DNA from: an uncultured Eubacteriales bacterium
Lineage (GTDB): Bacteria; Bacillota; Clostridia; Oscillospirales; CAG-272
Length of the DNA: 64,000 nt
Direction of reading: 5' to 3'
Assembly (NCBI GenBank): GCA_900546315.1
Contig: URCP01000004.1
Span: 195-64,194 of the forward strand
The notes under the pieces were generated by a model. That model did no database searches, was not told the origin of the DNA, and saw only the letters and a list, made by a program, of their open reading frames with translations. The translations under genes were made by a program, and so were the position numbers. Positions 3,821 to 45,285 of the stretch are shown piece after piece (positions within the stretch are counted from its first letter, which is position 1; each line of letters opens with the position of its first letter).

Positions 3821-4561
3821 ATGTCCGAGATACTGAGACTTGAGCATCTTGAGAAGAGCTTCGGCGACCACAAGGTGCTCCGCGATATAAACATGACCGT
3901 GAACAAGGGCGACGTGATAAGCGTCATCGGCCCGTCCGGCTCCGGAAAGAGCACGATGCTCAGATGCGTGAACCTCCTCGAGGAGCCGACCGGCGGTCGG
4001 ATAGTCTTTGAGGGACGGGACATCATGGAAAAGGAGATGAAGGTCTCCGAGTTCCGCACGAAGGTCGGTATGGTGTTCCAGTCGTTCAACCTGTTCAACA
4101 ACATGAACGCCCTCGCGAACTGTGTCTGTCCGCAGGTGACGGTTTTGAAGCGCCCGAGGGCTGAGGCGGAAAAAATCGCGAGGGAGTACCTGGCAAAGGT
4201 CGGAATGTCGGCTTTCGTGAACGCGAGACCCGCTCAGCTTTCGGGCGGCCAGAAGCAGAGGGTCGCGATAGCCAGATCGCTTTCGATGAACCCGGACGTT
4301 ATCCTGTTCGATGAGCCTACGAGCGCTCTTGACCCGGAGATGGTCGGCGAGGTGCTCGACGTCATGAAGTCGCTCGCGAAGACCGGACTCACGATGATCG
4401 TGGTCACGCATGAGATGAGCTTCGCCCGCGACGTGTCCGACCGCGTAATCTTCATGGACGGCGGTTATATTCTGGAGGACTCGACACCGGCGGAGATATT
4501 CGGAAACCCGAAGGAGCAGAGGACGAGAGAGTTCCTCTCGAGATATCTGGGAAAACAGTGA
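3821..4561 (+). CDS. Amino-acid ABC transporter ATP-binding protein (GlnQ-like)
   Basis: It has Walker [10 protein letters not shown], signature [13 protein letters not shown] and Walker [12 protein letters not shown]. The last 4 codons and the stop lie inside Rep90 copy B. Confidence 0.95.
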
Positions 4562-4639
4562 TTTAAGGTCATTTTCGCAGAAAAAAGCCCATAAATCCAA
4601 GGCTTTTTTCTGCGAAAATCCGAATTGTTCAGTGCTTCC
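4550..4639 (+). repeat. Rep90 copy B
   Basis: The sequence is GGAAAACAGTGATTTAAGGTCATTTTCGCAGAAAAAAGCC-CATAAATCCAA-GGCTTTTTTCTGCGAAAATCCGAATTGTTCAGTGCTTCC. It overlaps the ATPase stop codon at 4559..4561. Confidence 0.85.
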
Positions 4640-4814
4640 CCAGGCGGTTAAGGCAGGCAAAAAATGGCGTGTCCGAAAAACTCAACGTTCCGTTGAGCGA
4701 TAGCTTGCCGACAGGTCGCTTCACGAACGCGGCGGAATATGGTAGAATGTTTATACTCGATAAGGCATGACGCGGTGTCATGCGGATCGGGAAAAAATAA
4801 GTGAGGTAAACGAA

Positions 4815-5687
4815 ATGCTGCCATATGTATTCAGCGCCACGCCGGTCGGACAGACCATACGCAGACTCCGCAAGGAGCGTGGGCTTACACAGGAGGAGCT
4901 CGCGGAGCAGCTCGGTGTGACCGCGCAGGCAGTCTCCAAATGGGAAAACGAGACCGGAATGCCGGACATCTCGCAGATTGTTCCGCTGGCGGGTGTGTTC
5001 GGGGTGAGCACCGATGTGATATTCGGTCTCGATACGACGACCGCCGGCGAGGACGTGGCGAAGATACTCCGCGACGCCGAGGCGGATAAGGTCCGCGGAG
5101 GCGCGGCGTCATATATCAAGGCTTATGACCGGATAAGCGAGGGTCTCCGGAAGTATCCGTGCGATCAGCGGCTGCTTATGAACGGGTTCACGCTCGGGAT
5201 GAGTCTGTGTATGCCCGATTCGGGGTTTTACAGCGCGGAGAGGGCGGAGGAGATCGCGGCACAGCTCGGGAAGGCGTACATCGCGGTCGGAAGAAGCAGT
5301 GATGCCGTTAAGCTGTTCGAGCGGTATTTCGCGGCGATGAAAGTGATATTCGATGGCGAGAGACCGCGTCCTTATCATGATTTCGATTCGGGCGACTGTT
5401 ATCTGCTGCTCGCGAAGGCTTATCTTACACTCGGGGAGAAAGCGAAGGCGATGAAGTGCCTGCGGGATTCCGTAGAGTATTATGTCGGGATGTTTGACAG
5501 AGCCGGCGATGATCCAGTCGATCTGAGGTCCGGGTCGCCGTTCGTCAGCGGAAGTTCGATAAGCCTGCGGCTTGACCGCGAGGTCGCGCGGAGGCGTCTT
5601 GAACGGAAGATTGATTCGGATCTTATCGCGGAGCTTCATGATGAGCCGGGCTTTGACGAAATACGCGGTATGGTCGGAAAGCTCTGA
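4815..5687 (+). CDS. XRE-family HTH transcriptional regulator with helical-repeat (TPR-like) C-terminal domain
   Basis: The HTH reads IRRLRKERGLTQEELAEQLGVTAQAVSKWENETGMPDI. I prefer the start at 4815 (SD gtgagg upstream) over the track start at 4767. Confidence 0.8.
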   Translation: MLPYVFSATPVGQTIRRLRKERGLTQEELAEQLGVTAQAVSKWENETGMPDISQIVPLAGVFGVSTDVIFGLDTTTAGEDVAKILRDAEADKVRGGAASYIKAYDRISEGLRKYPCDQRLLMNGFTLGMSLCMPDSGFYSAERAEEIAAQLGKAYIAVGRSSDAVKLFERYFAAMKVIFDGERPRPYHDFDSGDCYLLLAKAYLTLGEKAKAMKCLRDSVEYYVGMFDRAGDDPVDLRSGSPFVSGSSISLRLDREVARRRLERKIDSDLIAELHDEPGFDEIRGMVGKL

Positions 5688-11793: not shown

Positions 11794-11937
11794 CAGGCCG
11801 ATCTTATCTATCCGAAAAAACGCAATAATATAGTTATAAAACGAGACATCATGACCTGATAAATAGTGTATAATATACACAGGGACACGCTGAATAAGTT
11901 ATATTTCCGCGGATACGGCGGTGTCCTCAGAAATAAA

Positions 11938-12027
11938 GGAAACACTGATTCAAGGTTGTCTTCACGGAAAAATACCCATGAATCGAAGCCCTTTTTCTGT
12001 GAAAAATCCGGGTTGCTCAGTGTATCC
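11938..12027 (+). repeat. Rep90 copy C
   Basis: The sequence GGAAACACTGATTCAAGG...CTCAGTGTATCC ends 24 nt before the downstream SBP start region. Confidence 0.85.
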
Positions 12028-12056
12028 TGAAGAACAATAAAGGAAGGGTCATGGTT

Positions 12057-13544
12057 ATGAGCAGGATTCAATCTGGTAGGGTAACGGCGATAATTCTTCT
12101 GGCGTCGTTTCTTATGTCATGCGGAGGAAAAGCGGGAGTAGAGAAGGAAACATCCGGCGCTGACAGCCGGGCTCAGGAAAGCACGGAGACTGCCGCCGTC
12201 GCTGAAGAGTATGTCTATCCCGACAAGAGCTACGGCGGCTATGAGTTCCGGATACTCAATTTCAACGAGTTCTGGAGCTGTTATGTGCGTGTGGACATCA
12301 CGGAGCAGACCGGCGAGGTGGTCGACGACGCGGTGTGGAAGAGAAACCGCGGGATTGAGGACAGGTTCGATATACATATCAGTGAGATCACGGAGGCGTT
12401 CAATGACGGAGGCAACGCCACGGGTGTCACGAAGCTGCTGAGCAGCGCGGTCATGGCGGGGGACGACGCGTATGACGCGGCGTTTCTTCCGATATCCTAC
12501 GCGCCCGGCGTCATTACAGAGGGAAGCCTTGTGGATCTCGGCAGTATCCCGGAGATCAACCTTGACAAGGATTGGTGGGATAACGTGCTCAATTCCGAAA
12601 TGTGGCTGAACGGAAAGCTCTACGCCGCCGCCACGCCTCTTCAGCTTACGTCGCTCGATCTTACATGGGTGCTGCTGTTCAACAAGGATATGCTGAACTC
12701 ATACGGTCTTGAGTATCCGTACGATACGGTGCGCGAAGGCAAGTGGACAATGGACGAGATGAACACGTATCTGACGAAGATCACGAATCTCAACGGCGAC
12801 GACTCGTTCAAGTACAACGAAAAAGGCAACGCCGTATACGGCATCGCGGGACACGACACAGGAAGCTATATGTTCCTGGTTGGCGGCGGTGAGTATTTCA
12901 TAAAGCATGACGATACTGGAAATCTGGTGTATGAGAGTCCGGATGACCGGTTTTACGAGGTTATAACCAAGGTCGCGGAGGTGTACTCGGCGAAGGATGG
13001 CAAGGTTCTGGTAAATTCGAATGACAAGTTCACCGACGCGGGCGGGTACTACAATCTGTTCTACTCGGGGAGAGCGGGCTTCCTTACGACCGAGCTCAAG
13101 GGCGCGAAGGTCATGCGGAGCCTTGAGACGGATTACGGCATACTTCCGTCTCCGAAATTCGACTTGAATCAGGAGAATTATATAACCTATGCCAGCGAGA
13201 ATATCGTGCGCTGCACGGTTCCGGTCACTGTGAGCGATCTGTCGCGTACCGGCGTGATCCTTGACGCGCTGTCCTATGAGAGCTATCGGGATGTCCTGCC
13301 GCTTTATTACGGGCAGACGATCTCTCAGAAGGGACTGAGGGACGAGGATTCGATTGAGATGCTGAGTATCATAAACGAGACGAGAGTCAGCGAGTCGGGT
13401 CTCATATTCGGCGTGACGTCCGGGCTCGTGAACGCGCTGAAATCCTCGATAAAGGACGGAAAGGACGATTACGCGTCGGTGGTCGCGAAGAACGAGGAGA
13501 GCGTCAGACAGAAGCTGACGAAGCTGCTCGAATCGATTGAATGA
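12057..13544 (+). CDS. Extracellular solute-binding lipoprotein (sugar-type ABC SBP, family 1-like), with no adjacent permease
   Basis: The lipobox is LLASFLMSCGG. It is a paralog of 15682..17166 (YGGYEFRILNF / YGGYTVRVLMR; DKDWWDN / DKPWWDQ). An alternative start lies at 12051. Confidence 0.75.
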   Translation: MSRIQSGRVTAIILLASFLMSCGGKAGVEKETSGADSRAQESTETAAVAEEYVYPDKSYGGYEFRILNFNEFWSCYVRVDITEQTGEVVDDAVWKRNRGIEDRFDIHISEITEAFNDGGNATGVTKLLSSAVMAGDDAYDAAFLPISYAPGVITEGSLVDLGSIPEINLDKDWWDNVLNSEMWLNGKLYAAATPLQLTSLDLTWVLLFNKDMLNSYGLEYPYDTVREGKWTMDEMNTYLTKITNLNGDDSFKYNEKGNAVYGIAGHDTGSYMFLVGGGEYFIKHDDTGNLVYESPDDRFYEVITKVAEVYSAKDGKVLVNSNDKFTDAGGYYNLFYSGRAGFLTTELKGAKVMRSLETDYGILPSPKFDLNQENYITYASENIVRCTVPVTVSDLSRTGVILDALSYESYRDVLPLYYGQTISQKGLRDEDSIEMLSIINETRVSESGLIFGVTSGLVNALKSSIKDGKDDYASVVAKNEESVRQKLTKLLESIE

Positions 13545-18131: not shown

Positions 18132-18414
18132 TTGCTTGTCCTTTCTCTCATTTCGCAGTTTACATTGTCGGCGGACAATGAGAACCACAAAACACTGGAT
18201 TGAAAGATTTATCTTTCAATCTGTGACTTCAGGCGGGCGCTCCGGTTTTCAGCCGCTGCCGGGACGCATCGGATATGAACAAAAGGCATACGGTTTATTT
18301 GATATCCACCGGATATCACGTTTGTACCGTATGCCTATTTTACCATATTCCGTGCCGCGAATCAACCCACAATTTCTTCCATAGCGGATCGTCACTTACG
18401 CAGACACGCGCGGA

Positions 18415-20656: not shown

Positions 20657-20661
20657 GACGA

Positions 20662-20800
20662 GCCTGAAAATAAATTTTCAGACCAGACAGTTTTGAGGCT
20701 TTCACGACATTGGGTCGTGAATTTTGAAAGACGGACAAGCCGTCTTTCAAAACCGCCTCAAAACTGTAAGTTTGTACGAAAGGCATGGACATACAAATGA
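20662..20800 (+). repeat. Rep109 copy 1 (109-nt structured core 20662..20770 plus a 30-nt 3' module shared with copy 2)
   Basis: The sequence runs gCCTGAAAATAAATTTTCAGAC...CAGTTTTGAGGC..TCACGAC..GTCGTGA..TTTGAAAGACGG..CCGTCTTTCAAA..GCCTCAAAACTG-TAAG. It starts 6 nt after the stop at 20656. Confidence 0.85.
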
Positions 20801-24707: not shown

Positions 24708-24710
24708 AAA

Positions 24711-24849
24711 GTCTGAAAATAAATTTTCAGACCAAACAGTTTTGAGGCTTTCACGACATTGGGTCGTGAATTTTGAAAGCCGGACAAGCCGTCTTTCAAA
24801 ACCGCCGCAAAACTGTAAGTCAGTACGAAAGATATGGTCATAAAAATGA
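24711..24849 (+). repeat. Rep109 copy 2
   Basis: It is nearly identical to copy 1 across the 109-nt core (24711..24819) and the 3' module. It starts 4 nt after the stop at 24707. Confidence 0.85.
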
Positions 24850-44100: not shown

Positions 44101-44982
44101 ATGAAGAATATCGGTATCTATTCTAACGCGGATAAGGACAAGGATTTCGCCGGGACCGCGGCGGTGATAGGCGCTCTCGGCGCGATAAGGCTGACGCGTG
44201 ACGGCGTCGGGGTGTTCATGGATATTTCGCAGGAGTGCGCGGTGAGGGATACTCTCGGTGAGGACGCCGTCAGAGACGTCGTTTTTCTCCCGGAGTGTGA
44301 GATGACGAGGACGATTGACGTAATGATAGTCCTCGGCGGAGACGGAACGCTTCTCAAGGCGGCGAGACGCTGTTCGCCGGCGGGGATACCCCTGCTCGGG
44401 ATAAACCTCGGGCGGGTCGGGTATATGGCGGAGCTCGAGATAAACGAGCTTCATATGCTCGGGAGGCTGATTGACGGCAATTATAATGTCGAGAGTCGGA
44501 TGATGCTCGACGCGGCGATACCCGGAAAGTCCGGAATGTTCGCGCTGAACGACGCCGTGCTCGGCGCGGAGTCGGTGTTCAGGATGGTCGATATAGAGCT
44601 CTGCTGCGACGGGAAGATTGTCAACCACTACAGGTGCGACGGGCTCATCGTCTCGACTCCTACCGGATCTACCGCGTATTCGCTGTCCGCGGGAGGACCT
44701 GTCATCGACCCGTGCATGGACGCCATCGCGGTGACGCCGGTCTGCGCCCACTCGCTGTCGGCGGCGCCTATCGTCTTTTCGGCGTCATCGGTGCTTGAGG
44801 TGCGGAACCTCTCGAAGAGGTCTCCGGAGATGTACCTGTCGCTCGACGGCTCCGAGATGTTCCGTGTAGGCTACGGGGAGAGCGTCAGGATAACGAAGTC
44901 GCCGCTGTCCTGCGGTTTCGTGAGATTGAAGGATGGAGGCTTCTACGAGGTGCTGCGCCGTAAGATGGCGGAGAGCATATAG
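44101..44982 (+). CDS. nadK: NAD kinase
   Basis: The motifs GGDGTLL and VSTPTGSTAYSLSAGGP are present. Confidence 0.92.
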   Translation: MKNIGIYSNADKDKDFAGTAAVIGALGAIRLTRDGVGVFMDISQECAVRDTLGEDAVRDVVFLPECEMTRTIDVMIVLGGDGTLLKAARRCSPAGIPLLGINLGRVGYMAELEINELHMLGRLIDGNYNVESRMMLDAAIPGKSGMFALNDAVLGAESVFRMVDIELCCDGKIVNHYRCDGLIVSTPTGSTAYSLSAGGPVIDPCMDAIAVTPVCAHSLSAAPIVFSASSVLEVRNLSKRSPEMYLSLDGSEMFRVGYGESVRITKSPLSCGFVRLKDGGFYEVLRRKMAESI

Positions 44983-45090
44983 TCTGAAAACAAGTTTTCA
45001 GACCAAACAGTTTTGAGGCTTTCACGACGTAGGGGCGTGAATTTTGAAAGCCGGACAAGCCGTCTTTCAAAACCGCCTCAAAACCGTAAG
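44982..45090 (+). repeat. Rep109 copy 3 (core only)
   Basis: The first base is the last base of the nadK stop codon. The core is conserved, with a few substitutions in helices 1 and 3. Confidence 0.85.
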
Positions 45091-45285
45091 ATAGCTATGA
45101 AAAACGGTCCCGCTCGGGACTACTTACATACGAAAGAGAGATTTGAAATGGCAGAAAACGAAGAAGTTCTCGAAACGGCGGAGTCCGATGGGGATGCGGC
45201 GCGCGGAGGCACGCCGGAGGCACCGTCTCCGGAATCGCGCTCCGGAAGACGCCGTCCGACGGAGAACGAGCGCGGAGGGATACTT

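Follow-up and report, generated by a model that had tools for sequence, protein, structure and literature searches.

What keeps a short fold-back repeat in place, in many copies, between the genes of a gut bacterium: the ability to move, the folding of its transcript, or mere persistence after mobility was lost? The question is raised by a repeat of about 90 bp, here called Rep90, that occurs three times in a stretch of 64,000 nt (the window) from an uncultured Eubacteriales bacterium, i.e., positions 195-64194 of contig C4 of a 3.0-Mb draft genome (175 contigs, 55% G+C; genome G000). A sequence-only reading of the window had called the repeat MITE/REP-like.

Copies of Rep90, family size and host range

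Searches with a covariance model (cmsearch) placed copy A at 1709-1797 on the minus strand (89 nt, 102.6 bits), copy B at 4551-4639 on the plus strand (89 nt, 99.8 bits) and copy C at 11938-12027, again on the plus strand (90 nt, 76.1 bits, E=4.9e-16), with E-values for the three ranging from 1e-22 to 5e-16 and a mean column identity of 83%. These are the places named by the sequence-only reading, which had described three copies of exactly 90 bp; the places held and the length did not, as the element measures 89 nt, the coordinates given for copies A and B had taken in one flanking base each, and copy C reaches 90 through one additional base. The 89-bp consensus is GGAAACACTGATTTAAGGTTGTTTTCGCAGAAAAAAGCCCATAAATCCAAGnCTTTTTTCTGCGAAAACCCGATTTATTCAGTGTATCC. 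Its terminal inverted repeats, likewise described beforehand as imperfect, are 11 bp long (GGAAAC[A/G]CTGA ... TCAG[T/C][G/T]TATCC), and in 57 copies 86% of the cells of their outer helix are paired. The expected lack of coding capacity is borne out, two of three frames running into a stop (TGA or TAA) no more than 15 nt in.

The three copies belong to a large family. A census with nhmmer (seeded with the three copies, one iteration) recovered ca. 70 near-full copies on 45 or more contigs of G000, so that the genome-wide copies the earlier reading had looked to are indeed there; identity to the consensus spans 74-98%, several copies reaching 96-98%. Solo ends also occur in the genome, together with shorter forms (23-55 bp) that have lost the interior, so that one end almost directly meets the other. 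Under the covariance model, five species of one genus yielded 102, 64, 97, 50 and 40 matches (counts that take in some opposite-strand matches of the palindrome), two further species of the genus had 1-2 matches each, and zero matches were obtained in the remaining 18 species of the genus and in 16 further families searched within the order; the species of the genus that lack the family number at least 26 in all. An alignment made by the model that mixed both strands of the palindrome was left out of the counts. When 185,579 species genomes were scanned for the exact pattern, the family turned up only in uncultured Eubacteriales/Clostridia MAGs, the carriers coming from the rumen and from the guts of Hadza and Nepali people; a match in a MAG labelled Methylophaga was rejected as a 38-nt half-match on a contig of 44% G+C.

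Plasmid and phage collections contained no match to Rep90, Rfam gave none at gathering scores over the whole window and none at E<=1 for 11850-12110, and a literature search with strings of the element returned unrelated primers only. Thus the possibility, left standing by the sequence-only reading, that the repeat belonged to an already described family found no support in Rfam, the phage and plasmid collections or the literature strings.

The window holds other palindromic sequences. A weak covariance-model match at 18284-18336 turned out to be an unrelated intergenic palindrome of 53 nt (GGCATACGG...CCGTATGCC). A second interspersed repeat of ca. 140 nt, also unrelated to Rep90, is present at 20661-20800, 24710-24849 and 44981-45120 (76-100% identity), each copy with a 31-nt palindrome, TTTTGAAAGnCGGACAAGCCGTCTTTCAAAA.

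The hairpin and its compensatory changes

Each window copy folds into an outer 11-bp helix (arms GGAAACACTGA and TCAGTGTATCC, with a mismatch at position 4), an asymmetric internal loop and a long inner hairpin. Predicted RNA stabilities lie between -25 and -38 kcal/mol, with z-scores of -9.5 for copy A, -5.8 for copy B and -2.9 for copy C, and folding as DNA agrees with the RNA picture (copy C, z = -2.7). The hairpin is best preserved in copy A; copy C is the most diverged and decayed of the three, its hairpin weakened and containing a G.T pair.

The stems CATAG/CTATG, CGCAG/CTGCG and CACGG/CTGTG are as the sequence-only reading gave them, and its claim of compensatory change is upheld by the wider family. 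Covariation was scored on 57 copies against a hand-written structure (RNAalifold on a MAFFT alignment produced a poor consensus owing to gap placement). Paired cells made up 88.6%; 18 of 30 pairs were changed on both sides, compared with 9.1 in shuffles, and doubly changed cells numbered 71 against 20 in shuffles and 7-19 in slid controls, the observed values being unmatched in 500 of 500 shuffles. At least 8 perfectly complementary arm haplotypes exist among 118 copies: CGCAGAA/TTCTGCG (23 copies), CACGCGA/TCGCGTG (17), CGCGGAA/TTCCGCG (4), GGCAATA/TATTGCC (4), and also CACAGAA/TTCTGTG, CGCGGGA/TCCCGCG, CATAGAA/TTCTATG and CCCAGAA/TTCTGGG. Much of this covariation lies between subfamilies and so shows that the subfamily founders had intact hairpins. 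A change in place is seen at copy A, where strain L098 has CATAG/CTGTG (with a T.G pair) and the window CATAG/CTATG. Position 7 of the terminal repeat covaries with the base opposite (A.T in 48, G.C in 51) and positions 4 and 6 do not, position 4 being usually mismatched, which indicates that the ends are not kept complementary as such. The proposal that structure rather than sequence is maintained therefore stands for the covarying stems and fails for the termini, the internal loop and the hairpin loop, all of which are conserved in sequence. As the amplified lineages always have perfectly complementary arms, with an arm sequence that differs by subfamily, we infer that the long inner hairpin would be needed for the propagation or the tolerance of the element, where it may act as DNA folded during transposition or as RNA in the many transcripts containing it.

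Such a pattern could also be expected if Rep90 were mainly a cis-acting RNA module selected by the host, a hairpin placed after genes to terminate transcription, to stabilise 3' ends or to be processed by RNase, for which transposition was the delivery route. Covarying stems combined with conserved loop and internal-loop sequences make a signature like that of structured RNAs, the change at copy A passes via T.G (G.U), which RNA tolerates and DNA does not, and the predicted hairpins are very stable. The shape is nonetheless not that of a canonical terminator, in that the stem is A/T-rich with an 11-nt loop and is followed by CCCGAUUUAUUC, with no U-run directly after the stem; a simple scan flagged none of the three copies as an intrinsic terminator, and the lack of an Rfam match likewise speaks against this reading. 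Promoter-like hexamers inside Rep90 were not found by a simple scan either.

A long and nearly perfect fold-back, held together by compensatory changes and present in many intergenic copies, is also what would be expected of a REP/REPIN, an inverted palindrome pair moved as single-stranded DNA by a RAYT (a Y1 enzyme, IS200-like) for which the hairpin is the substrate; Bertels and Rainey reportedly described, in 2011, compensatory changes that preserve the hairpin in REPINs. The flanks of the copies and the enzymes of the carriers bear on this reading.

Target duplications and placement next to genes

Exact 4-bp direct repeats flank 45 of 110 copies from five species, compared with a mean of 8.0 and a maximum of 16 in 500 shuffles, and with up to one mismatch between the two 4-mers the number rises to 74 of 110 (control, 37.5). 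Among the same 110 copies there is no excess at lengths of 2, 3, 5 or 6, the 2-bp repeats standing at 3 of 110 with 2.7 expected; in G000 alone the 4-mers on either side are equal in 18 of 57 copies (3.8 expected). Consistent target-site duplications, which the sequence-only reading could not see, thus exist and are 4 bp long. The commonest are CTAA (13), TTAA (11) and ATAA (5), followed by ATAG, CTAT, CTAG, CCAG and CAAG, and over all 110 copies T occupies flank position -3 in 69, A position -2 in 94 and A or G position -1 in 103. Since the arrangement CTAA...CTAA is direct and not inverted, these bases are duplicated target and lie outside the terminal repeat.

At copy A the duplication is intact. 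Read in the orientation of the element (minus strand), its flanks are ...tatatctaa GGAAAC...GTATTC ctaacttt, with CTAA on the left at 1798-1801 (TTAG on the plus strand) and CTAA on the right at 1705-1708; the TTA noted earlier on both sides of this copy is explained by CTAA reading as TTAG on the plus strand. Copy C has TAAA and TGAA, matching at 3 of 4 positions, and at copy B no duplication is left. The target, [C/T/A]TA[A/g], faces one fixed way with respect to the element: flanks of the type VTAA outnumber TTAB by 25 to 2, CTAA occurs 13 times and TTAG 0 times in element orientation, A is accepted at the first target base, and the orientation bias persists far from stop codons (12 vs 1).

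These flanks do not suit a REPIN. The duplications are true 4-bp ones with a variable first base, whereas HUH/Y1 transposition makes none, and the terminal inverted repeats start with GG. Furthermore, PF01797 (Y1_Tnp) had no match in G000, G011, G012 or G020, although control genomes gave matches, and the two matches in G002 both have internal stop codons. The duplications and the lack of a Y1/RAYT gene in four of the five carriers together rule out a REPIN or IS200/IS605-type mechanism, and a REP/REPIN origin is, in our judgement, extremely improbable. It is thus the MITE half of the earlier label that remains, the REP half being dropped. We consider it highly probable that Rep90 is a non-autonomous DDE transposon (MITE) with the hallmarks of the IS5 group, i.e., GG termini and a 4-bp, YTAR-like duplication.

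Gene calls based on codon usage (2,495 genes, 88% coding) put all copies in intergenic DNA, although some overlap a gene end by a few bases. Copies crowd behind stop codons: of 71 gene 3' ends facing a copy, 26 are no more than 16 nt away from it. Several of the adjoining stops are the TAA of the duplication itself and others come from the element, either its TGA at positions 9-11 or its TAA at positions 13-15. Within 30 nt of a stop, 28 copies share the orientation of the gene and 5 oppose it (p=7e-5), and spacers between divergent genes are under-represented (7 copies, when their share of intergenic DNA predicts ca. 15). Both the same-strand bias after stops and the depletion of divergent, i.e., promoter-bearing, spacers could be read in favor of a host-selected RNA module. 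The oriented target explains the bias as well, and it is the simplest reading of the pile-up, given that copies remote from stops show the oriented NTAA preference too. In a genome of 55% G+C, the sense-strand TAA of stop codons would be the commonest tolerated target, and insertion there would set both the position directly after the stop and an orientation equal to that of the gene; the duplication would restore the stop, and the termini would bring TGA and TAA stops of their own. Moreover, 13 of 40 copies between co-directional genes are in the opposite orientation, which speaks against such a module.

The window copies illustrate these placements. Copy A sits between a sigma-70-type promoter-like site (TTGATT-17-TATAAT, 1644-1672) and a lysine riboswitch aptamer at 1797-1970 on the plus strand (Rfam RF00168, 94 bits, E=1.5e-23), whose terminator at 2001-2023 precedes an amino-acid ABC transporter operon; as the aptamer adjoins it, copy A lies within the transcribed leader. 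Ten sister species yielded no orthologue of the operon. An ABC-transporter ATPase gene (3821-4561, plus strand, Pfam ABC_tran) owes its final three codons and its TGA stop to the left terminus of copy B, so that the protein ends in ...SRYLGKQ* and its stop codon at 4559-4561 falls inside the terminal repeat. Copy C is followed, 23 nt further on, by a start codon at 12051, and upstream of it is a promoter region conserved across species. With copies A and C both downstream of promoters, transcription passes through the element at some loci at least. Of the three window copies, these two stand in 5' leaders, where an efficient terminator would silence the gene, and we regard it as unlikely that Rep90 is chiefly an RNA module of the host.

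Other features were seen near these copies. Just upstream of copy C, at 11883-11932, is an inverted repeat of 44-50 nt (GGACACGCTGAATAAG ... CGGCGGTGTCC) with a left arm similar to the right end of Rep90 in the sister-species subfamily (GGATAAGCTGAATAAT) when that end is reverse-complemented; judged from its sequence, it may be an old, internally deleted Rep90 copy. At 11810-11875, TCCGAAAAAACGCAAT is followed ca. 40 nt on by GTATAATAT, a pair of motifs that five species share downstream of an AraC-type gene and that is probably a conserved promoter or operator, the gene downstream of it varying among the five species. Within an HTH/TPR-type gene (4767-5687), two conspecific contigs (L098 and L099, 98-99% identical) have ca. 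250 additional bases at 5247-5257, with an 11-nt overlap at the junction and the gene called at 366-369 aa as against 290-306 aa; the difference looks like the gain or loss of repeat units in a TPR protein.

Mobility, candidate transposase and related elements

Filled and empty sites, the comparison by which the sequence-only reading had hoped to establish mobility, differ between species and also between conspecific strains of sister species. In G012 a copy follows the stop of a peptidyl-prolyl isomerase gene and the orthologous spacer of G000 (C44:17731-17801) is empty; likewise, a tandem dimer after parA in G012 corresponds to an empty spacer of 41 nt in G000 (C6:33611-33653). Orthologous coding DNA of the carrier species is 70-78% identical, and Rep90 copies are far more alike across species than the genes around them, with a different dominant subfamily in each species. 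Such similarity, together with the homogeneity of the species-specific subfamilies, implies that amplification followed the species splits.

Two sites vary among strains of sister species. Downstream of an AraC-type gene, strains L069 and L216 are filled (...TTTTCTAG, the element, CTAG, GGTTACACTG...) and L217 is without the element, being 98.7-99.6% identical on both sides with 14 nt in place of 111 nt. After parA, strain L213 has a tandem dimer, L215 one copy and L214 none; in L214 (1720-1760) the sequence runs ...CATTATAA, a 17-bp tandem repeat of the left flank and then ATATTATCCCG. The 17-bp duplication is exact (GCTCTGACGCATTATAA twice, ending in the target ATAA) and could be the repair footprint of an excision. 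At the polymorphic sites the left (upstream) break falls exactly at the terminus, and neither is a clean 93-bp indel, so that these alleles may be products of excision or deletion and not sites that were never occupied. Tandem dimers in three species share one 4-mer and a period of 93 nt, which fits repeated use of the same target.

Within the species of the window itself, the three window copies and six others were found filled in conspecific contigs from other samples at 9 of 9 sites (97.7-100% identity; copy C in three contigs at 97.7-98.7%), and these nine sites give no sign of recent movement. No empty orthologous sites were found for the three window copies, the spacers being unalignable at 70-78% coding identity and synteny being broken downstream of copy C in the other species. 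Fixation at all nine sites, identities to the consensus that go down to 74% with many decayed copies, frequent internal deletions and the lack of a matching transposase would all suit an inert relic, i.e., a once-mobile family in which covariation stems from intrastrand hairpin-templated repair or gene conversion with no selection involved. Against this stand the several copies at 96-98% identity to the consensus, the homogeneous subfamilies that point to amplification after the species split, and the presence or absence of copies between strains of sister species, and we find a relic of this kind very unlikely.

If Rep90 is a MITE, its transposase would be one of the IS5 group, since GG termini and 4-bp YTAR duplications are typical of that group and since one such IS is multi-copy in the same genomes. 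A complete element of this kind (1.14 kb, with a 331-aa transposase; PF01609, 97.7 bits) is present in G011. In G000, tblastn and end-motif searches found fragments of the same IS at seven or more contig ends, its end sequence (GGCAACACCGCACAA...) lying at C12:47288-47437, C42:1-150, C8:1-77, C58:18291-18384, C22:35044-35159, C118:7916-8003 and C148:1-79, which indicates that the IS breaks the assembly. Close relatives occur in G000, G002, G011 and G020 and in 0 of 26 species without Rep90; G012, which is rich in the MITE, has no copy. The co-occurrence of IS and MITE may reflect the shared ancestry of one subclade.

The ends of this IS were first read as ATTTAAGG... with an AGAA duplication, a reading that was discarded when 70 metagenome copies gave GGCAACACC... 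and YTAR duplications. The ends in those 70 copies are GGCAACACCGC, and the direct repeats around them are TTAA (15), TTAG (6), CTAG (2) and CTAA (2). Between GGAAACACTGA of Rep90 and GGCAACACCGC of the IS, 8 of 11 terminal bases match. Descent of Rep90 from this resident IS was considered and rejected, as the IS ends align with the halves of the MITE no better than shuffles do (p 0.1-0.9); the words ATTTAAGG and ATAAATCCA, common to both, are not significant. An IS with GGAAAC[A/G]CTGA ends was found neither in G000, nor in four sister genomes, nor in 80 metagenome loci of the IS5-group relative; as the draft MAGs break at IS copies and collapse them, this absence weighs little. Similarly, 3.5 kb inward of the solo left ends in G000 there was no right end of an autonomous partner, a scan across G000 for two inverted ends that have matching flanks and 0.5-3.5 kb between them returned only noise and pairs of separate MITE copies, and none of the PF01609 matches in seven genomes had Rep90 ends.

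Rep90 is an undescribed MITE family of IS5-group character in a clade of uncultured Clostridia, and as such an element of a well-known kind. IS5 of Escherichia coli, the left inverted repeat of which begins GGAAGGTGCG, and the IS5 group share with Rep90 the 4-bp duplication with a central TA, the GG termini and the preference for non-coding DNA. IS5 duplicates 5'-YTAR-3' on insertion (PMC5009759). This target is symmetric, as is that of the co-resident IS5-group IS, whereas Rep90, which encodes nothing, uses an asymmetric NTAA target that is read in one orientation and allows A at the first position.

Other MITEs with ends of the IS5-family type are BrickBuilt, MITEPgRS/MITE464 and MITE700 of Porphyromonas gingivalis and ATR of Neisseria (PMC4596501). 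Like BrickBuilt, MITE464, MITE700 and ATR, Rep90 is short, non-coding, multi-copy, mostly intergenic and devoid of any internal transposase remnant, and has terminal inverted repeats that resemble those of resident IS5-family IS. The resemblance is closer in P. gingivalis and Neisseria, where the repeats are identical to those of named resident IS or one base off, while Rep90 and its nearest IS agree at 8 of 11 bases. BrickBuilt also contains an internal minisatellite and makes irregular duplications, in contrast to the compact 89-bp fold-back and regular 4-bp duplication of Rep90. As high-copy intergenic fold-back MITEs that are co-transcribed with genes, the Correia elements (CREE) of Neisseria and the RUP elements of Streptococcus pneumoniae (ca. 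100-150 bp) are comparable too; their transcripts form long hairpins and, as in Rep90, internally deleted size variants occur. Correia and RUP elements duplicate TA (2 bp), and RUP is linked to an IS630-type IS; Rep90 differs from both in its 4-bp duplication and in having no promoter-like hexamers in the simple scan. With REP/REPIN sequences it shares intergenic palindromes, hairpins kept by compensatory changes and tens to hundreds of copies, but REPINs make no target duplication and need a Y1 enzyme, whereas Rep90 has duplications and Y1 genes are lacking in four of its five carriers.

The features that set this family apart are the oriented NTAA target, the pile-up at stop codons and the well-documented covariation of the hairpin. 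A more speculative idea, which we rate as rather doubtful, is that the hairpin is no by-product but does the work of the element. In one version, a DDE transposase would need the cruciform or single-strand form of the 89-bp element to join the two ends, and such a requirement for a folded form would explain both why only perfectly paired lineages were amplified and why the target is used in one orientation. In another, the host would have co-opted a hairpin that seeks out stop codons and would use it as a general module at the 3' ends of its messages.

Rep90 leaves the known workings of such elements unchanged. For the annotation of this gut and rumen clade of Clostridia, the family accounts for dozens of hairpins per genome that might otherwise be mistaken for terminators or regulatory RNAs, explains several assembly breaks and explains altered gene ends, e.g., that of the ABC-transporter ATPase gene at 3821-4561. 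With more than 300 matches in species-specific subfamilies, it also provides a clean natural data set on why fold-back MITEs keep their hairpins and on how an oriented NTAA target steers insertions to stop codons.
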